In this document: positions 11,726 through 24,723 of the stretch, one piece after another | Layout: the number at the start of each line of letters is the position of its first letter | Numbering within the stretch: position 1 is the stretch's first letter | Assembly: GCA_016931455.1 (NCBI GenBank) | Contig: JAFGES010000125.1 | Coordinates: forward strand, 2,561-66,560 | Reading direction: 5' to 3' | Source of the DNA: Desulfobacterales bacterium | Lineage (GTDB): Bacteria > Desulfobacterota > Desulfobacteria > Desulfobacterales > JAHDSC01 | DNA length: 64,000 bases | Translations under genes and position numbers: made by a program | Notes under the pieces: model-generated | What the model saw: the letters and a program-made list of their open reading frames with translations, nothing else | Database searches by the model: none | What the model was told of the DNA's origin: nothing

Positions 11726-14362
11726 ATGAAACACATAAAATTTTTGAAACATACCTCACATCCAAATTTTAAGTCATTTTATTTTGAAATTACTTGCATT
11801 ATTTTTATTCTTATATTTCTACTGATAGATTCTGTATCGGCTCAGAAAACAGAAAATCAAATGCCTAAAAATCAGATCAATCATTCCGATCTCAGTGACT
11901 CACTCGATAAAACTATTCAGATCGAAAAAGAAAATATAAAGGAACTCAATGAAACGTTAAAAAATGTTCAACGTTTAGAAAAAACCATGGATGTAGAGCT
12001 CAATGCCTACATGATACAAATTCCAGCTTATAACACCTTGCTGCATACTGCAACGACCGACATTGACGACCTGCAAAAGGCTTGGCTGAATAATCGAGAC
12101 ACCTTGGCCGCAATCACCGCCACGCTTAAAGAGTTGAATCAAAAGCGTAGCGCAATTGAGCAATTGCAGATTCAAACCGATGAACAATATACCCTGAATC
12201 AAAACAAATTATCGGAAATCAAGGCCAAAGATTCTATTACGGAAAGTTCTTTGAAAAAGCTCCAAATTTTAACGCAAATCCTTTCAAATAAGAATGAAGT
12301 GCTTGAAAAAATTAATAAAATACATATTAAACAAATAAGCAAGCTCAATATAATCCAGCAGGACTTCACCGTTTTTGCGGAAAAATTCGACAAACGGATT
12401 AAAGAGAGGAAAAAGCAGGAACTTTTCCAGCGTAAAGCCAACCAACTGGCGTTGTTATCCTGGGATCTGATCGAACTTGAACTTAAACAATTAACGGATC
12501 AAGGGCGCTTGCTCATATCAAGCAATTTTTGGAAGGAACAGTTTCAAACTTTTTGGAAATCGAACGGTTTTTTATTTTTCAGCTTTATTCTGCTTTTCGG
12601 CGTTATTCAGACCTTGCTGTTTCGTTTTCGTATTTTTCTCAACCGTCTGGAACAAAAACCCTTTTACAGTCAACAGGTGTGGTGCTGCCTTACTTTACAA
12701 GTTTTTCAAAGTTCATTGCCGCTGCTCGTCACAACCCTTTTTGTTTACATTTATAGCCGTTTGCAACTTTTCTATCCTTCGGTTCCCTTTATACGAGTCA
12801 TCGTTTTTGTGTTGTTGATCCGTCTGTTTACACAATGGATATTGGATTTTTTAAAGCTATTGAATCGTGAAAAAGCGCTTAAAATATCCGGCCATTTGAT
12901 AACTCGTCTGCGGATTCTTATCATTTCGATTCGATATTATGCGTTTGCTTACGTGATCTTCGAATGGGCTTTGGGCAATTCCAGCGTTATTTTACTTTTT
13001 GGCCGTATCCTTGCTGAAATCAGCTTGTTTATCTGGTGTTTGCTCTCTTTAAAAATTTTCAAAAAAACACTGGAACAAAGCTTTCAAGCCAAACCAAAGT
13101 TAAATCTGATCTTAAAGCCGCTGATTATAGGCATAGTTGACTTGGTTGCCGGTGGTGGTTTGTTTCTTGAATTCATCGGATACGGTCAACTCGCATTGTA
13201 TTGGTATGTTTCATGGGGCCGAAGTATTGTTGTCTTTTTATGGGGCACTTTAATTATTTTAGTTCTGCATGAATGGGATCAAGAGATCCGCAAAAGCCTC
13301 CTATCGGAGAAAAAAGGTTCCGTAAAACCGGTTTATCCGTTTCGATGGCTTTTCATTCGAGTTTCTTGGCTCGCTGCTACCGGCCTTATTATTATGTGTC
13401 TCTTTTTCGCATGGGGTACAAAACAAACTGCCATCATTGCCTTTTTAAGCGCCTTAAATCATCAGATTTCCATCGGCGGAATGCGCTTCAGCCTGCTGGG
13501 GTTTGTATATGCTTTTGTAATTTTATTGGTCACGCATGCGGCCACGCGTCTGTGGCGGCGTGTCTTTAAGAACAAAATCATAGCCGATAGCGGCTTGGAG
13601 TTAGGCCTTCAAGAGTCCGTCACCACGATCACCGCTTATATCCTATGGACTTTTGGAATATTAGGGGCACTTTACGCTTTTGGAATCAACCCCACTTCGC
13701 TGGCGGTCTTATTCGGCGCCTTAGGTATTGGTCTGGGGTTTGGTCTTCAAAACATTTTCAATAATTTTGTAAGTGGCCTTATCCTTCTTTTTGAAAGGCC
13801 GATCCAGGTCGGCGATGTGGTCGAAGTCAACGGTATTTGGGGCAAAGTAAATAAAATCAACGTGAGATCCACATTGGTGCAGACTTATGACAATGCTTCG
13901 CTTATCATCCCCAACTCCGAATTTATCAGCAGCCAACTGACCAATTGGAGTTTCAAAGATTCACGAATACGCCGTAAAATCACTGTCGGGGTTGCTTATG
14001 GCTCTGATTTGAGTCTTGTCCGTCAAACATTAATGGAAGTCGCTGAAAATCATCCCAGGGTATTGACCGAACCACAGCCTGATATTCTCTTTGAAGATTT
14101 TGGTGACAGCGCCCTTGTCTTTACATTGCGTATCTGGACTCTCGTGGATTATGCGTTATCAACCGATACGGAAATCCGTTTGGAAATCGATCGACTCTTC
14201 AGAAAACGAAACATTCAAATTCCATTTCCACAGCGAGATATTCACCTTCAATCAACCTCAGTGCAAAAAAATCTTGATCAAGCTGAAAAAGAAATTAATG
14301 TTTCACAAACTTCTATTTTACCGGCAACCAGGGGAGAAGATGTCAAATCGACTGATCAATGA
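11726..14362 (+). CDS. Large mechanosensitive channel, MscS family (MscK/KefA-like)
   Basis: Signal/TM start, a long N-terminal coiled-coil, multiple TM segments, and a C-terminal MscS core ([38 protein letters not shown]). Confidence 0.88.
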
Positions 14363-16430
14363 AAAAAGCCCCTATCTCCTCCAGCACGCGCATAATCCGG
14401 TCGACTGGTACCCTTGGTCGGATGCCGCTTTTGCACGTGCGAAAGCAGAGAACAGACCTGTTTTTCTCTCGATTGGTTACGCTACCTGCCATTGGTGTCA
14501 CGTCATGGAAAAGGAGTCTTTTGAAGATGAAGAGACAGCTCGATATCTCAACGAAACCTTTATTTGCATCAAGGTCGATCGGGAAGAGCGCCCCGACATA
14601 GACGCAGTGTACATGAACCTATGCCAAATGCTCATTGGAAGCGGCGGCTGGCCTCTGACGATTTTTATGACACCGAATAAAAAACCCTTTTTTGCCTCCA
14701 CTTACCTGCCTAAACGCAATCGATTCGGCCGAACCGGATTGATTGAACTTTGTAAAAAAATTAAAGAAACTTGGCGGTCGGAAAGGCAAAAAGTCATGGA
14801 GGCAGCCGAAACTATTTCTACTAAATTAGCAGATACTTTTATATTTTCTCCAGCCGAACAGACGGATGCATCTTTATTGGATCAGGCCTACAATGAAATC
14901 CGGCCAACCTTTGATTCTCGATTTGGGGGTTTCAGTCCGGCACCTAAATTCCCAATGCCGCATCGATTGCTTTTTCTGATGCGCTATTATCATCAAAGCG
15001 GCAATGAAAAGGCGCTTGAAATGGTTAAAAAAACACTGATCACGATGCGTTTGGGAGGGATATGGGATCATGTGGGTTTTGGTTTTCATCGATACGCCAC
15101 CGATAAAAAATGGTTACTGCCTCATTTTGAAAAAATGCTTTACGATCAGGCTTTAATATCTATGGCTTACCTTGAGATCTTTCAAATTACACGGGATTCC
15201 TTTTTTTCTCAAACCGCTAAGGAAATTTTTACTTATGTGATAGGGGAAATGACTTCAGAGCAAGGGGCTTTTTTTGCGGCTCAAGATGCTGACAGCGAAG
15301 GTGAGGAAGGCAAATTTTTTACCTGGACAACCGAAAAATTTCGACAGGTTCTTGGAGAAGAAGAAGCAAAGTTTTGGAAAAAAATTTTTAATCTCAGCCC
15401 CGACGGCAACTTTTTTGAAGAGGCAACCGGCCAAAAGACCGGAACCAATATTCTTCATTTAACCAAGCCCTTGGTTCAGTGGGCAAATGAATTAGAAATA
15501 GAAGAAAAGCAGTTTTTATTGAAATGGAAAACAGCTAGAAAAAAGCTGTATCAACAAAGACAGCATCGAATTCATCCGTTTAAAGATGACAAAATATTGA
15601 CCGACTGGAATGGGTTAATGATCGCTTCCTTGGCCCTGGCTTCTCGTGTATTGGATATCCCCGCGTACATAAAGGTTGCTGAGAAGACAGCTAATTTTAT
15701 TCTGACAAAAATGCAGGATGATTCCGGGGGGCTATGGCATCGTTTTAGAGATAATGAAGCTGCAGTCAAACCGCACGCAAACGACTACGCTTTTTTTATC
15801 TGGGGACTTTTACATTTATACCAAGCCGCATTTAACCCGACCTATTTGCATCATGCAATCAGGCTTCAAAATCGCATGCTCGATGATTATTGGGACACGG
15901 AAAATGGTGGTTTCTTCCTTTCAGCAAAAACAGATACGGAGCTGCCGATTCGTCCCAAAGAGTTATATGACGGTGCAACCCCATCGGCGAACTCAGTATC
16001 CCTTTTCAACCTAATGTGCCTATCGCGACTAAGCGGTGAGGTAAAATGGGAGAATAAGGCTAAAGACTTGGTTCGCAGCTTTGCCGGGACGGTTAAAATT
16101 TATCCCGCAGCCTACACCCACTTTCTTTCGAGTCTGTATTTCGCCCTTGGGCGGGAAGGGGAAGTAGTTATCACCGGCAAAGAGGATGCGGCCGATACTC
16201 GGGAAATGCTATCGAGTCTGAACGGCAGATTTGCTCCTAATCAGGTCGTACTTTTTAAGTCGGATAAAAATAAAAATGAGTTGGCCGAGGTTGCCGAATT
16301 TACGGTCAACTTACAACCGGTGAAAGGAAAAGCCACAGCTTATGTATGCGCCGATTTGAGCTGCAGCCAACCGACTAACGATGTCCGGAAAATGCTCGAA
16401 TTGATTCGATCAAACGAAAAGATACCATAA
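14340..16430 (+). CDS. Thioredoxin-domain protein of the DUF255/YyaL (SPATA20-like) family
   Basis: [26 protein letters not shown]...[13 protein letters not shown]. The start is set at the ATG after GGGGAGAAG. It overlaps the channel gene by 23 nt. The upstream 83 codons of the track ORF lie inside that gene. Confidence 0.88.
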
Positions 16431-20686: not shown

Positions 20687-21556
20687 ATGATGAAGAAAAT
20701 ATTTAAGTTTGTTTTGGTACTTTTTTTATTGGTTTTAGTGGCATTAGCAGTGATTTATTACCTGCTCGGAAACATCATTCGCACCGGTGTTGAAACCATT
20801 GGCCCGGAGGCTACCGGAGCCGATGTGACCTTAGCCGATGTGGATCTGAGTCTCTTCTCGGGTCAGGCGGCGTTGGGTGGTTTTGTGATCGGGAACCCGG
20901 AGGGATTCATTTCCAAAAACGCATTCGAACTTGGAAAGGTGGCGGTCGGCGTTGACCTCTTTACTGTGCTTGACGATGTCATCATTGTTAAGAATATTCT
21001 CATCGATGGTGCCAAAATTACCTGGGATGGCTGGGCCGGTGATAATCACAGAAAAATTATGGAAAACATAGAAAAATATACCGGCGGTCCTTCAAAAAAA
21101 GAAACCGAGCTGGAAAAGAAAGAACCGTCCGGGCCGCAAAAAAAGGTTATTATTGAAAATTTCCAATTTCAGAACAGTTCCATTGCTTTTGTAATCAGCG
21201 GTAAGCAAATCGCAGAGCTTGAATTTCCAACTTTGCACTTGACCGATATCGGTCGCAAGCAAGGCGGGCAGACGATAAAGGAGGCTTTGCAGCAAACGTA
21301 TCAGCAGATTATTGAAAGTCTCGGTCGTGCCGTAACCCTGAATAGTCAAATGCTACAGCAAAAGGCCGCGGAATTACAGTTAAAGGGTATAGAAATGCTG
21401 CAACAAGGCAAGGAAACGCTTGAAAAAGGAAGGCAAGTTATTGAAAAGGGTAAGGAGGCACTTGAAAAAGGTGATTTAAAAAGTGTGCAGGAAAAGGCGA
21501 CGGAAGGAGTCAAAGATTTTACAAAAAGCATAGGAGATTTATTGAATAAAAAATAG
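20687..21556 (+). CDS. Hypothetical N-terminally anchored protein with a C-terminal coiled-coil (AsmA-like N-terminal flavour)
   Basis: GGGAGGG RBS 6 nt before the ATG. One TM (FKFVLVLFLLVLVALAVIYYLL). Repetitive KG-E-LEKG C-terminus. No catalytic motif recognised. Confidence 0.6.
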   Translation: MMKKIFKFVLVLFLLVLVALAVIYYLLGNIIRTGVETIGPEATGADVTLADVDLSLFSGQAALGGFVIGNPEGFISKNAFELGKVAVGVDLFTVLDDVIIVKNILIDGAKITWDGWAGDNHRKIMENIEKYTGGPSKKETELEKKEPSGPQKKVIIENFQFQNSSIAFVISGKQIAELEFPTLHLTDIGRKQGGQTIKEALQQTYQQIIESLGRAVTLNSQMLQQKAAELQLKGIEMLQQGKETLEKGRQVIEKGKEALEKGDLKSVQEKATEGVKDFTKSIGDLLNKK

Positions 21557-21578
21557 GGCATACGCGAATCATGCAATG

Positions 21579-21625
21579 AAATATACTGCAGTCGCAGGGT
21601 AAAGGCTTGTGACTGCAGTATATTT
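21579..21625. terminator. 15-bp perfect hairpin between convergent genes (candidate bidirectional terminator)
   Basis: AAATATACTGCAGTC (21579-21593) pairs with GACTGCAGTATATTT (21611-21625), with a 17-nt loop and A/T-rich flanks. Confidence 0.55.
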
Positions 21626-21648
21626 ATGAATGCAATAGGCAAGACGGC

Positions 21649-21903
21649 CTATGATTCGCTACGGCTCGCTTTTTTTTGTTTCGAATTTGAATCTGTTTTT
21701 TTATTGGTTTGATTGTCTCTGTCGGTATTCAATATTTTGTCACGTTCCTCTTTGGGTTTGGGCTTTAAGGTCATTACGGGCACTAACGTTTTGCTGATTA
21801 AATAAATTTCTTCCACATTTCTTAATTGTTCCGGATCGGGTTGCTTCTCGTCTAAATTTTCAAGCACTTCAAGAGTTCCATCGAATTTTTTGGCAATATA
21901 CAT
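21649..21903 (-). CDS. Small hypothetical protein (84 aa) with a Lys-rich, probably disordered tail
   Basis: A strong SD (AGGAGA) sits ~9 nt upstream of the ATG at 21903 (MYIAKKFDGTLEVLENL...). The longest ORF extends to 22122 but has no RBS. No domain recognised. Confidence 0.5.
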   Translation of the reverse strand: MYIAKKFDGTLEVLENLDEKQPDPEQLRNVEEIYLISKTLVPVMTLKPKPKEERDKILNTDRDNQTNKKTDSNSKQKKASRSES

Positions 21904-22181
21904 TTTTTTTATTCTCCTGGAAATTAACGTTAGGAAATTGATATCCATCAACGGGGATATGCTGAGCATGTTCAAGTCCTGTGACGTTAAACGGTTACAG
22001 GGATAATAATGGCATGTCGGGCAAGACATAAATGCCGTGTAACATTGAAGCTTACAGCACCAAAATGAAACATTGATAGATAATGGATCATCTTTATCAT
22101 AAGGAATAAATTTCATCATCATTTAAGCCAAGTAATGGGCATCGTTTTTGAACTGTTTGATTTAATTGAAAATAAAAATAG

Positions 22182-22210
22182 TTGTCAAATGCGCCTATTT
22201 TGTTTATAAA
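22182..22210 (+). promoter_or_regulatory. Promoter candidate of the repressor gene
   Basis: TTGTCA (22182-22187), 17-nt spacer, TATAAA (22205-22210). The -10 element lies inside the palindrome 22201-22218. Confidence 0.4.
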
Positions 22211-22218
22211 AATAAACA
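22201..22218. promoter_or_regulatory. Operator-like inverted repeat TGTTTAT-N4-ATAAACA
   Basis: TGTTTATAAAAATAAACA: 7-bp perfect arms overlapping the predicted -10 element. The same arms recur at 22951-22968. Confidence 0.55.
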
Positions 22219-22253
22219 TATTTTGTCAACACTTTATCAACGGGTGCCGAACG

Positions 22254-22907
22254 ATGACTATATCGAAATTCGAATCTTTTCTACAAAGGGTATTTGAGGC
22301 GACTGGATTTTCATCTCAAAATGAATTGGCTGCCGCCATCGGAGTGAACCGTTCCGCAATCACACAAGCCAGGAAAAAGGGTTCAATTCCGGACAAGTGG
22401 ATTTTGAAATTGTATCGTTTATACGGATTAAATCCCGATTGGATTGAGACGGGTATAGAGCCGGTTTTCCTGAAAAAGTTAAAGGCTGGTGAAACTGAAT
22501 TTAAAACAGTGCCGAAAGTAAAAGCAAGACTTTGTGCCGGGGGTGGATCTTTTGAAGTCGGATCTGAAATTCAGGGTTATTACTCGTTTCAAGAGAAATG
22601 GCTCAGGAAAAAAGGGAATTTGGGTACGATGATTTTAATGGATGTCTTCGGCAACAGCATGGAGCCCGCATTAAAAGATGGAGATACCGTCATGATCGAT
22701 GTATCCCAAAAAAATATTTTAGCCGGCGTTTTATATGCAGTGGGTATTGAGGATGTTATCATGGTAAAAAGATTGGAGAAACATCCGAATAAGCTTGTTC
22801 TGCTCAGCGATAATAAGGATTATGCTCCGATTTATCTGCAAAAAGAAGAGGTTGATCATATTCGGATTATCGGGAAAGTGATTTGGCTTTGTAGAGAATT
22901 AAAGTAG
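22254..22907 (+). CDS. CI-type HTH repressor fused to an S24 (LexA-like) autopeptidase domain
   Basis: N-terminal phage-CI-type HTH (SQNELAAAIGVNRSAITQARKKGSIPDKWILKLYRLYGLNPDWIETG). Ala-Gly candidate cleavage site (RLCAGGGS). S24 motifs GNSMEP (Ser) and MVKRL (Lys). Confidence 0.88.
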   Translation: MTISKFESFLQRVFEATGFSSQNELAAAIGVNRSAITQARKKGSIPDKWILKLYRLYGLNPDWIETGIEPVFLKKLKAGETEFKTVPKVKARLCAGGGSFEVGSEIQGYYSFQEKWLRKKGNLGTMILMDVFGNSMEPALKDGDTVMIDVSQKNILAGVLYAVGIEDVIMVKRLEKHPNKLVLLSDNKDYAPIYLQKEEVDHIRIIGKVIWLCRELK

Positions 22908-22940
22908 TTGGGCTCAAATCTACCTGCAAAGGCGATTTTT

Positions 22941-22978
22941 TTGCATTTTATGTTTATATATATAAACATAAAATGCAA
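22941..22978. promoter_or_regulatory. Perfect 38-bp palindrome containing a second copy of the operator motif
   Basis: TTGCATTTTATGTTTATATATATAAACATAAAATGCAA equals its own reverse complement. Its core is TGTTTAT-ATAT-ATAAACA. It starts 34 nt after the repressor stop and ends 65 nt before the 23043 start. Confidence 0.7.
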
Positions 22979-23042
22979 GCATATAAACTTTAACGGATTT
23001 AAATATCAACATAACGAATCAAAGCCGAAAGGAATTTGAATC

Positions 23043-23330
23043 ATGAAAGGACGGATTGTTAAAACCTATGCCGTGGGTTTGATGTGGGCGCTTGGCCTTC
23101 TGCTGGCGGGAAGTGACAATGTTTATATGCCTTGGCCGAATTTGTTGGGCATTGCAATGTTCGGGCTCGCCGGTGGGTTGATGAACAGTAAGCGCTTAAA
23201 GTTTGAAAGATTTTTTTCAAGACCGATACTGAAAACCTGTGAGCTGAAAAATTCGGTAAAAACCGTTTGGGTAATATCATATGTCAATATTGCGGCTGTT
23301 CTGAATAGAAAATCTTCCGGGCCATCCTAA
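23043..23330 (+). CDS. Small hypothetical membrane protein (95 aa, 2 predicted TM segments, basic C-terminal half)
   Basis: The only long ORF in this interval. Hydrophobic stretches YAVGLMWALGLLLAG and LLGIAMFGLAGGLM. Weak RBS (AAAGGAA). Confidence 0.5.
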   Translation: MKGRIVKTYAVGLMWALGLLLAGSDNVYMPWPNLLGIAMFGLAGGLMNSKRLKFERFFSRPILKTCELKNSVKTVWVISYVNIAAVLNRKSSGPS

Positions 23331-23784
23331 GATTCTTTTGTTGCTTTAAAGATATAGACAATTGAAGAATACAAGGATAAGCATTTTTGAAATTATTTCT
23401 TGACAAGCTGATATTTGTGGTTAGAGTTTTAGAAAATTCTTAGTAGGGAAAAGTTGCCTTGATATCCTTAGATATCTTATAGGGTGTTATTTTTTTCTAA
23501 TTGCATCATGTATTTTCAGATTAAAATTTACAAGCCGGATTATCCTGTACTACAATAATATATTAAACCATTTATAGAAGAATATCTTTTACGCTACGGA
23601 TGCAAATTTATAATCCGTTTAATCAGCACCTTCGAGGCTGCATTTTTTTGCAATCTTAATTGGGATGCCGGGTTAACAAAAGAAAGTAAAAATCGGCATC
23701 CTGAAATTTTTTAGGCAATCGGAAAATATATGAATTCAGAAAATACTTAAACGGCTCCAAAGACCATGCAAAGGAGAAAAGGAT

Positions 23785-24723
23785 ATGATCCATGTCGAAA
23801 ATCTGACGAAATATTACAATGATTTCTGTGCGGTGGATCGAATTAACCTTGACATTGAAAAAGGTGAAATTCTTGGATTGTTGGGCCCCAACGGCGCGGG
23901 TAAAACTACTACGCTTCGGATGTTGACCGGCTATTTTTTGCCGACATCCGGAACTATTCGAGTAAAAGATTATAGTATCGATGAGAGCTTGCTGGAAATA
24001 AAAAAACTGATGGGATATCTGCCTGAGTCCGCTCCTCTGTATCATAATATGTTGGTGTTTGATTATCTCAATTATGTTGCTGTGATTCGGGGTCTGAAAC
24101 AGGATGAAAAAATATCCAGAATCCGGGAATTGGCCGATTTATGCGGCTTGAACGACATTATGCACAACAGCATTGATGAACTTTCCAAAGGTCTGAAGCA
24201 GAGAGTGGGGCTAGCCCATGCAATGATGAGTGATCCTGAAATTTTAGTGCTGGACGAGCCTACTTCGGGATTGGATCCAAACCAGATTGCCGAGATACGA
24301 CAGATTATCCGGCAGATTGGAAAGGAAAAGACGATCATTCTTTCAACCCATATCCTCAGCGAAGCTGAGGCGACATGCGACCGAGTAGTGATTATCAACC
24401 AGGGAAAAATTATTGCCGATGACCGCATGGAAAACCTTAAACAATCCGGTGGTCAGGAAAATTTTATCCAAATTTCACTGCTTGATGCCGAATTCTCTGC
24501 AGTTAAAGACGCATTGAGTTCTATTGAAGGCATTATCAAAGTTCAACAGATGGATGAAACCCAAGACGGTATACTTAATATTCGACTTGCGTGCAAGACT
24601 GCTGTTGATCTTAGAAAAACCATTTATCAGGCCATCAAACAAACAGATTGGAATTTGATACAATTGTACCGGGAAACCAAAAACCTTGAAACCATATTCC
24701 GAGAATTAACCAAGGAGAACTGA
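23785..24723 (+). CDS. ABC transporter ATP-binding protein (GldA-like, ABC-2 type)
   Basis: Walker A GPNGAGKTT, signature LSKGLKQR, Walker B ILVLDEPTSGLD. AAGGAGAAAAGG RBS. Confidence 0.92.
   Translation: MIHVENLTKYYNDFCAVDRINLDIEKGEILGLLGPNGAGKTTTLRMLTGYFLPTSGTIRVKDYSIDESLLEIKKLMGYLPESAPLYHNMLVFDYLNYVAVIRGLKQDEKISRIRELADLCGLNDIMHNSIDELSKGLKQRVGLAHAMMSDPEILVLDEPTSGLDPNQIAEIRQIIRQIGKEKTIILSTHILSEAEATCDRVVIINQGKIIADDRMENLKQSGGQENFIQISLLDAEFSAVKDALSSIEGIIKVQQMDETQDGILNIRLACKTAVDLRKTIYQAIKQTDWNLIQLYRETKNLETIFRELTKEN

Follow-up and report, generated by a model that had tools for sequence, protein, structure and literature searches.

A putative self-contained regulatory cassette of Desulfobacterales built on a chromosomal CI-like S24 repressor

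In a 64-kb window of a Desulfobacterales contig (the window is the whole stretch of DNA analysed, and coordinates are window positions unless a relative's locus is named), a gene for a CI-like repressor lies between two copies of a palindromic motif, O1 and O2, and two genes for small proteins, here called orf95 and cys157 (Table 1). We consider this locus to be, quite probably, a self-contained and chromosomally fixed regulatory cassette of the Desulfobacterales, made up of a self-cleaving repressor, two operators and small-protein targets. This reading builds on direct observations: the gene content of the locus, the domain identity of the repressor and the conservation of its catalytic residues, the conservation of the operators and their exclusivity to the repressor gene, and the linkage between the repressor and orf95.

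Table 1. Genes and predicted regulatory elements of the repressor locus in the 64-kb window
Feature	Position	Strand	Remarks
Repressor, 217 amino acids	22254..22907	+	ATG at 22254, stop codon 22905-22907; Pfam, PHROG and PDB matches
cys157, ~155-157 amino acids	21649..22122	-	start at 22116-22122; the 84-residue open reading frame noted earlier (21649-21903) is its C-terminal half
orf95, 95 amino acids	23043..23330	+	AAGGA 9 nt 5' of ATG
Predicted operator O1, TGTTTAT-AAAA-ATAAACA	22201..22218		exact motif; position weight matrix (PWM) score 30.6
Predicted operator O2, core, TGTTTAT-ATAT-ATAAACA	22951..22968		PWM score 32.4
Perfect 38-bp palindrome, TTGCATTTTATGTTTATAT / ATATAAACATAAAATGCAA	22941..22978		O2 core inside
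T7 tract	22936..22942	+	ends 8 nt 5' of O2 core
Predicted repressor promoter	22182..22210	+	-35 TTGTCA 22182-22187, 17-nt spacer, -10 TATAAA 22205-22210
Predicted cys157 promoter	22203..22229	-	-35 TTGACA 22229-22224, 15-nt spacer (suboptimal), -10 TATAAA 22208-22203
Candidate orf95 -10, TATAAA	22982..22987	+	14 nt past O2 core; consensus reading

The repressor, recorded at NCBI as MBN1932607.1 and named only 'helix-turn-helix transcriptional regulator', consists of a CI-type five-helix helix-turn-helix (HTH) domain (residues ~5-66), an Ala95-Gly96 site and an S24 domain with Ser135 and Lys172. A preliminary description of this DNA had proposed these same elements, and the domain matches and residue conservation bear it out. 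In Pfam, Peptidase_S24 (PF00717) was matched at 4.5e-21 (75.1 bits against a cut-off of 23.3) and Phage_CI_repr at 4.8e-08, also above the Pfam cut-off, while PHROG_4, a transcriptional repressor family, covers the whole length of the protein at 7e-44. A PDB search aligned the C-terminal half with LexA crystal structures (E 4e-7) and the N-terminal half with phage 186 CI. An AF2 model from a 12-sequence alignment has confident N-terminal helices, five of them without a wing, and an S24 half with a predicted local distance difference test score (pLDDT) below 50. Among 118 distinct full-length homologs, Ala95 is conserved in 99%, Gly96 in 100%, Ser135 in 99% and Lys172 in 100%. These residues lie in the motifs ARLCAGGG (A95-G96), GNSMEP (S135) and VKRL (K172), and their spacings of 40 (A95 to S135) and 37 residues (S135 to K172) fit an S24 cleavage site; the corresponding LexA spacings are 35 and 37. 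The four residues are near-invariant, and self-cleavage therefore appears to be under selection. By its domain and catalytic residues we assign the protein to the Peptidase S24 regulators (the LexA/CI/UmuD superfamily) and predict that it is cleaved. It was rejected as a canonical LexA, as TIGR00498 scored 46.8 bits against a cut-off of 110.95 and matched residues 92-216 only, and the N-terminus matches Phage_CI_repr, not LexA_DNA_bind. Among the PADLOC defence models, the sole match of the repressor was a weak one to a 26-residue HTH (mad1, E 0.0019), and the small proteins had none. On one metagenome contig (L094, 3270-3692) the repressor is called with 140 amino acids in an otherwise identical locus, which may reflect a frameshift or an assembly error.

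The preliminary description called this repressor an orphan, a label that its distribution does not support. A search over 5.8 billion proteins gave 1492 matches; the best 120 are nearly all 216-219 amino acids long (eight have 227-266) and ~70% identical, except one at 93%. When GTDB was scanned with one genome per species, relatives were found in at least 177 species, and the best 80 of these all belong to the Desulfobacterales or Thermodesulfobacteriota, with 62-73% identity. The carriers include Desulfatibia, Desulfosarcina, Desulfosudis oleivorans, Eth-SRB2 and an Olavius symbiont. The genes adjoining the repressor vary from locus to locus, and no phage genes were present in the loci examined. 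Viral collections hold only distant relatives: no close one was found in 2.9 million viral contigs (IMG/VR), where the best matches reach 30-34% identity over most of the repressor and the best single stretch 40%, confined to 83 S24 residues, and the closest relative in a sequenced phage (INPHARED) is the repressor of Desulfovibrio phage ProddE, at 33.5% identity. The PHROG_4 match suggests that the family descended from phage repressors and now evolves as a chromosomal gene. Judged by its carriers and its neighbourhoods, the repressor is thus a chromosomal family conserved across the order Desulfobacterales, neither an orphan nor a stray phage leftover. The earlier remark that the locus is not an intact prophage agrees with these results: no integrase, terminase or endolysin gene was seen flanking the repressor in the window, which also has no tRNA gene and no shift in GC content or composition at the locus. 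Two candidate identities were accordingly rejected, a prophage CI immunity repressor (cellular flanks, no tRNA, no phage genes in relatives, no close relative in IMG/VR or INPHARED) and a prophage remnant (conservation, context and absence from viral collections).

The motif TGTTTAT-N4-ATAAACA occurs as two exact copies in the 64 kb and in none of 100 dinucleotide-preserving shuffles. No further copy with up to two mismatches was found in the window, and the third-best site of a PWM scan scored 11.5, which is at noise level. The two copies, the overlap of the upstream one with the repressor -10 and the perfect palindrome around the downstream one had all been noticed in the preliminary description, and all are confirmed, the -10 at the level of a consensus reading and the length of the palindrome as a lineage-specific feature. 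Operators were then counted in 85 non-redundant repressor-anchored loci from the GTDB scan, which total 821 kb. With up to two mismatches, an O1-type site lies within 130 nt 5' of the ATG in 68 of the 85 loci, most commonly at position -52, and an O2-type site lies within 80 nt 3' of the stop codon in 49, and in more by matrix scoring (commonest position +17 after the stop; centre most often 26 nt past it). Orthologous loci have the motif at both positions, a point on which the preliminary description had made its proposal depend. The consensus is (TA)TGTTTAT-N4-ATAAACA(TA), 18-22 bp long, with G2, T3, T4 and A6 of each half almost invariant. At a PWM score of at least 17, the 821 kb contain 64 upstream, 71 downstream and 13 other sites, all within 250 bp of a repressor gene, and shuffled sequence contains one site; no strong site was found away from the repressor flanks in these loci or in the remaining ~62 kb of the window. 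In a second repressor clade (54-60% identical), the sites read TGTTGCA-ATTT-TTCAACA upstream and TGTTTAG-TTTT-TTCAACA downstream, and the recognition helix, NRSAITQARKK in repressors with TGTTTAT-type sites, is NRSGITHARNN in those with TGTTTAG/TTCAACA sites. This co-variation of recognition helix and operator fits direct recognition of the operators by the repressor.

Both predicted divergent -10 hexamers fall within O1 when read by consensus. The predicted repressor promoter was not listed by the scanning tool because the tool demands T at the final position; in relatives, the place of its -35 is also filled by a hexamer (TTGCAA, TTGCTA or TTGTCA). In the loci whose upstream sequence was read by eye, a perfect minus-strand TTGACA accompanies each divergent cys157 (the window, L008 and L009; L108, also divergent, was not among them), and five loci that have no divergent cys157 lack it. 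At the candidate orf95 -10, the block ATATAAACTTT is kept in L009. A run of at least six T ends exactly 8 nt 5' of the O2 core in 111 of 118 loci, and an A-run is often seen 5' of O1 (96 of 117 loci). The T-tract and A-run could be UP-like or -35-proximal promoter elements, or bent DNA that aids binding.

The 38-bp palindrome is the longest in the family, in which only the core of 18-22 bp is conserved and most loci have no longer one. Other long O2 palindromes occur at L062 5813 (32 bp), L083 5490 (28 bp) and L009 1087 (28 bp); across these four lineages the flanking arms are unrelated in sequence, and O1 is never extended. The extensions of O2 arose independently, and may reflect selection for a hairpin or cruciform or mechanical growth of the palindrome. 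Other changes were also seen behind the repressor gene. A short repeat that starts with GTGTCCATCC directly follows the repressor stop codon in several relatives (L001 6660, L052 5654, L053 4025, L027 1058 and others), recurs elsewhere on the same contigs, forms an inverted repeat in L001 and displaces O2 from the stop codon; it looks like a small insert of the repetitive extragenic palindromic (REP) or miniature inverted-repeat transposable element type. In L008 (repressor 93% identical) the repressor stop codon is directly followed by a DDE_Tnp_1 transposase gene (1507-2670), which occupies the place that O2 and the membrane-protein gene hold in the window.

The gene downstream of O2 in the window, orf95 (NCBI MBN1932608.1, 'hypothetical protein'), encodes a small protein with hydrophobic segments at residues ~9-23 and 33-47 by hydropathy. 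The two hydrophobic helices and basic tail given in the preliminary description are thus confirmed. Net charges of +3 at the N-terminus, -1 in the loop and +8 in the tail suggest that both ends are cytoplasmic and that the loop faces outward. A phmmer search over all 1.84 billion cluster representatives gave 71 relatives of ~90-110 amino acids, which share the core G-x2-W-x2-GLL-x-AGSD-x2-YMPW-x-N-x2-G-x3-F followed by variable basic tails. The loop between the helices reads AGSD-NV-YMPW-P-N, and W15, A22, G23, S24, P30, N33 and G36 are invariant. In comparison with L009, whose repressor is 93% identical, the first 42 codons of orf95 show 6 synonymous against 4 non-synonymous codon changes, and the tail diverges after ~codon 56, with an indel. 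The preliminary description had also named the coding status of orf95 as a point on which its proposal could fail; the 71 relatives and the synonymous excess speak for a conserved coding sequence. The linkage that it had suggested checking holds as well. In a metagenome scan with the orf95 alignment, a repressor homolog (54-73% identical) lay directly upstream in ~47 of 52 loci, and an operator-like site lay between the two genes in 45 of the 47 loci scored. Among the five loci without a repressor, four have orf95 within ~110 nt of a contig end, and the fifth, L125, has neither repressor nor operator in the 3 kb upstream. On this evidence orf95 is a real conserved coding family linked to the repressor.

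No significant match to orf95 was obtained in Pfam, NCBIfam or PHROG scans, and no homology to a known division inhibitor was found. A class II holin was considered and rejected: the layout of two helices and a charged tail is compatible with it, but no endolysin or lysis gene lies close to it, and neither PHROG nor Pfam gave a match to a holin. The gene has the layout of the SOS-controlled small membrane inhibitors of the YneA/SosA/SidA type, as it adjoins an S24 repressor gene with a predicted operator in between. Our guess is that orf95 acts on the membrane as a stress effector, whether by inhibiting division in the manner of SidA and SosA or as a membrane toxin. Its invariant loop points to a specific partner more than to a generic pore, and for this reason we lean, still as a guess, to a SidA/SosA-like envelope or division inhibitor over a TisB-like toxin or a holin.

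In the loci from the genome scan, the gene that follows O2 is usually not orf95. A soluble protein of 54-56 amino acids with the motif YEYHG-x-T-x-IE followed by WI-x-FDSV-x-EA-x2-FF is encoded 3' of the repressor in 71 of 93 loci, and in 45 loci its gene is followed by that of a 31-residue hydrophobic peptide (MFDRIIDGILDVILMVMILIMSVLGTLIVGL; for example L001 7177-7271 and L006 7225-7319). Among the contigs examined, only some have this peptide as a called gene. By analogy with the two-helix orf95 of the window, where both the 54-56-residue protein and the peptide were sought and are absent, the peptide is a candidate small membrane effector. Other lineages have a zinc-ribbon-like protein of 56 or 50 amino acids in the slot. 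On a neighbour-joining tree of the repressor, one large clade has orf95 only, other clades have zinc-ribbon proteins, or the 54-residue protein together with a zinc-ribbon protein or the peptide, and the window and L009, which carry orf95 and cys157, nest among lineages with the 54-residue protein. The downstream slot, as read across these lineages, is one in which small genes are swapped, with orf95 as one of several alternative cargos. The distance from the centre of O2 to the cargo ATG is 36-40 nt for the 56-residue zinc-ribbon cargo (27 of 31 loci) and 42-46 nt for orf95 (33 of 45 loci). This distance is fixed while that from the stop codon to O2 varies, which argues that O2 belongs to the cargo promoter. 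The 54-residue protein had no PHROG match, and neither the 54-56-residue protein, the 31-residue peptide nor the two zinc-ribbon-like proteins had a significant match in Pfam. A mini open reading frame between O2 and orf95 in the second clade (an ATGAAA box) was rejected because its reading frames are inconsistent across loci.

On the other side of the repressor, the preliminary description had placed a divergent 84-residue gene across a ~350-bp gap. This gene call had to be revised. Homologs of cys157 have 138-179 amino acids and align from the N-terminus, with invariant C22, C34, C37 and C42 and a conserved VPVMTLKPKPK motif, and the part of the gene upstream of the 84-residue start shows 7 synonymous against 5 non-synonymous codon changes relative to L008, a sign of purifying selection. 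The conservation of this N-terminal half with its four cysteines and the selection on it imply a true product of ~155-157 amino acids, and the corresponding start leaves a gap of ~131-137 bp to the repressor. Gene callers also give the 84-residue short form on the contigs of relatives (L008, L193), and the protein collection lacks the 157-residue sequence. Beside a repressor homolog, cys157 was found in eight loci that represent at least five distinct lineages: divergently in the window, L008, L009 and L108, and downstream of the cargo in L010, L056, L093 and L094. In these eight loci it would be controlled by O1 or O2, and under O2 it counts as a further cargo of the exchangeable slot. Its AF2 model has a mean pLDDT of 79.8; Foldseek found no match to this model in the PDB at E<=0.001, and Pfam, NCBIfam and PHROG held no significant match to the protein.

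Taken as a circuit, these elements would work as follows. The repressor would bind as a dimer to the 18-22 bp palindrome. On O1 it would cover the -10 hexamers of both predicted promoters, giving negative autoregulation and repression of cys157, and on O2 it would shut the promoter region of the cargo gene that follows, here orf95. Cleavage at Ala95-Gly96 would split the DNA-binding half from the dimerising half, and operator occupancy would fall. By analogy with LexA, lambda CI, PrtR, AlpR and FddR, the trigger would most likely be RecA on single-stranded DNA. The repressor gene, cys157 and orf95 would then be transcribed, and renewed synthesis of the repressor would reset the switch. Operator binding, the promoters, RecA dependence and the function of the effectors are the predicted parts of this scheme. 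The preliminary proposal of a module of repressor and membrane protein is retained in that the two genes form a conserved unit with both sites; it was too narrow in that the slot swaps cargos and cys157 shares O1 with the repressor as its upstream operator.

Several points weigh against the proposed cassette. The promoter hexamers are consensus readings, with a 15-nt spacer for cys157 and a poor -35 for orf95. The window departs from the family in the distance between O2 and the orf95 ATG, 84 nt against the typical 42-46 nt, and orf95 could be co-transcribed with the repressor, as no terminator was found between them. In L095 and L096, cys157 occurs alone, with no repressor or operator close by. 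Pfam, NCBIfam, PHROG and PADLOC yielded no recognisable family or fold for the small proteins, although not every library was applied to each protein, and their functional reading is a guess. Finally, the operator scan covered the 64-kb window and 821 kb of related loci, and there may be a larger regulon elsewhere or a coexisting canonical LexA.

That last point touches on an alternative in which the repressor is the master regulator of the SOS response, a non-canonical LexA as in Bacteroidetes, and the sites described here are the autoregulatory part of a larger regulon for repair and mutagenesis. Such a role would suit a chromosomal, clade-wide and strongly conserved protein with its cleavage apparatus intact and with the same domain make-up as the Bacteroidetes non-canonical LexA (PMC8565304), and the small membrane protein beside it recalls lexA-yneA and lexA-sosA. 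A regulon of ~20 sites per 4-Mb genome would, however, yield ~4 extra sites in the DNA scanned, where no strong site lies beyond the repressor flanks, and no repair or translesion-polymerase gene adjoins the repressor in any locus examined. We therefore regard this alternative as unlikely. Neither recA nor a canonical lexA was found in any of the related loci sampled, within those stretches of DNA. A different role, with similarly slim chances in our view, is that of an autoregulated cassette outside the DNA-damage response, in which the S24 domain serves for dimerisation or answers to another trigger (an anti-repressor, redox or envelope stress) and the small proteins belong to an unrelated stress response. 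The N-terminal domain resembles that of phage 186 CI, which is inactivated by an anti-repressor and not by cleavage, and some repressor loci lie beside psp envelope-stress genes. Against this, the near-absolute conservation of the Ala-Gly, Ser and Lys residues in the 118 sequences indicates that proteolysis itself is under selection, and to our knowledge the characterised HTH and S24 repressors with cleavage residues respond to RecA on single-stranded DNA.

Two further explanations concern the nature of the DNA itself. The 38-bp palindrome could primarily be a structural element of RNA or DNA instead of an operator, for instance one that terminates transcription, stabilises the repressor mRNA at its 3' end or belongs to the REP-like repeats. 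As RNA it would form an 18-bp hairpin just past the stop codon (regional z-score -4.6), and extended palindromes with unrelated flanks occur at the same place in three other lineages. This hairpin is, however, AU-rich with no U-tract after it, and a terminator scan of 21400-23900 found nothing, so that it is not a canonical terminator; moreover, the conserved part is the core of 18-22 bp that matches O1, most loci have nothing longer, and this core was found nowhere else in the 821 kb of related loci. A primarily structural role is, in our estimate, quite improbable. The locus might also be the decayed immunity region of a prophage or mobile element, with the repressor as a leftover CI and the small genes as remnants of lysis or moron functions, for example a class II holin. 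The best curated matches of the repressor are indeed phage repressors (PHROG_4 and that of ProddE), orf95 is built like a class II holin in having two helices and a charged tail, and one close relative has an insertion sequence element directly after the repressor gene. Yet the repressor keeps 55-93% identity and a constant length in more than 100 species among differing housekeeping neighbours, there is no integrase, terminase, endolysin, tRNA or compositional shift, viral contigs offer at most ~34% identity over most of the protein and 40% over the 83-residue S24 stretch, and orf95, cys157 and the 54-residue cargo protein have no PHROG match. This reading is already largely refuted, and we see almost no chance that it is correct. 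The cassette with its own repressor, operators and small-protein targets is what we retain.

The closest described case is FddR of Francisella, a phage-type HTH and S24 repressor that is fixed clade-wide in the chromosome with its cleavage residues conserved and that, by RNA sequencing and electrophoretic mobility shift assays, binds a palindrome in its own promoter and controls a network of itself and one adjacent divergent gene of unknown function (PMC13148647). FddR and the Desulfobacterales cassette have in common a co-opted phage repressor present throughout a clade, a palindrome at its own promoter and a tiny self-contained network. They differ in the motif, GTG-N11-CAC for FddR and TGTTTAT-N4-ATAAACA here, and in layout, as FddR controls a divergent gene whereas the cassette adds an operator after the stop codon and a downstream slot, with a divergent gene as well in the lineage of the window. 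Unlike the FddR target, the cargo consists of exchangeable small proteins, and the cassette was defined by comparative genomics. In Pseudomonas aeruginosa, PrtR and AlpR are chromosomal self-cleaving repressors that exist beside LexA and link damage to membrane and lysis functions (PMC12796719, PMC7969949). They share with the cassette a chromosomal LexA- or CI-like self-cleaving repressor with an adjacent target gene, but their direct targets are regulators, the activator PrtN and the antiterminator AlpA, which switch on large lysis or pyocin clusters, whereas the predicted direct targets of the cassette are tiny proteins with no lysis cluster nearby.

The small membrane division inhibitors YneA, SosA and ChiZ, whose genes adjoin lexA, and SidA of Caulobacter have little sequence conservation between groups (PMC6851548, PMC13396833). 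As with YneA and SosA, orf95 is a small membrane protein gene beside an S24 repressor gene and its predicted operator. Those systems use canonical LexA repressors, which have a winged HTH and control large regulons, and their inhibitors have one transmembrane helix and divergent genes, whereas orf95 has two helices and a conserved loop and lies downstream of the repressor; a role in division is a guess. The non-canonical LexA of Bacteroidetes controls dinB, umuDC and other repair genes through GGA-N5-TCC or CTAA-N5-TTAG (PMC8565304). It is similar to the cassette repressor in its CI-type HTH with S24, its chromosomal and clade-wide presence and its palindromic autoregulatory site, but no repair gene was found under the cassette motif in the 64 kb and 821 kb. 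The CI proteins of lambdoid and other phages share the two-domain architecture, with a full-length PHROG_4 match and the identity to ProddE given above, but the cassette has no cro-like partner, integrase or lytic genes and its repressor evolves slowly, like a cellular gene. Like the domesticated CI-like local regulators of the FddR, PrtR and AlpR type, the repressor is chromosomal and clade-wide and has a palindrome at its own promoter and an adjacent predicted target. We therefore place the cassette among the domesticated CI-like S24 repressors (FddR, AlpR, PrtR and the lexA-sosA type).

The wider surroundings of the locus in the window are cellular by Pfam. On one side lie genes for an MscS channel, DUF255, HD, subtilase, glutaredoxin and AsmA/DUF748 proteins, and on the other side genes for an ATP-binding cassette (ABC) ATPase, an ABC-2 permease, an auxiliary ABC component, DUF4340, DUF4114 and ABM. 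A strong hairpin at 21579-21625 (18-nt arms, 94% complementary, 11-nt loop) separates the convergent AsmA/DUF748-like gene, which ends at 21556, from cys157, which ends at 21649; it is probably a terminator common to both, though missed by the simple terminator scan. Between orf95 and the ABC-transporter operon is a 454-bp gap (23331-23784) with no notable open reading frame. Two sigma-70-like matches lie in this gap, at 23400-23427 and 23527-23556, and a 26-nt sequence is directly repeated there (23519-23544 and 23599-23624). As listed, the open reading frames of the MscS channel (11726-14362) and of the DUF255 thioredoxin-like protein (14091-16430) overlap by ~270 nt; the Pfam match of the latter begins at residue 86, which makes an internal Met near 14343 the probable start of the protein. 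An Rfam scan of the whole window matched no known RNA family.

A literature search on LexA, SOS and DNA-damage responses in Desulfobacterales returned nothing relevant, and no transcriptome data for carriers were found. Public annotation leaves the circuit unnamed, and comparative genomics across more than 100 species defines its operator, repressor and target. The sulfate-reducing Desulfobacterales are major actors in the carbon and sulfur cycling of marine environments and sediments, and several uncharacterised families of small proteins are placed here under one predicted stress-type switch. A more far-reaching reading, which we find rather doubtful, is that a phage repressor domesticated across the order drives a minimal circuit, inducible by damage, whose fixed targets are only itself and the slot; the membrane cargos would then be new checkpoint effectors (division inhibitors or depolarising toxins), and the soluble and zinc-ribbon cargos new modulators. 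In its strongest form, if true, the cassette would be the seed of, or a substitute for, an SOS network in Desulfobacterales. In the work on FddR, self-contained phage-repressor units were proposed as material from which SOS-like networks can be rebuilt (PMC13148647), and the cassette would be a further natural case of such rebuilding, with the swapping of cargos as an added feature.

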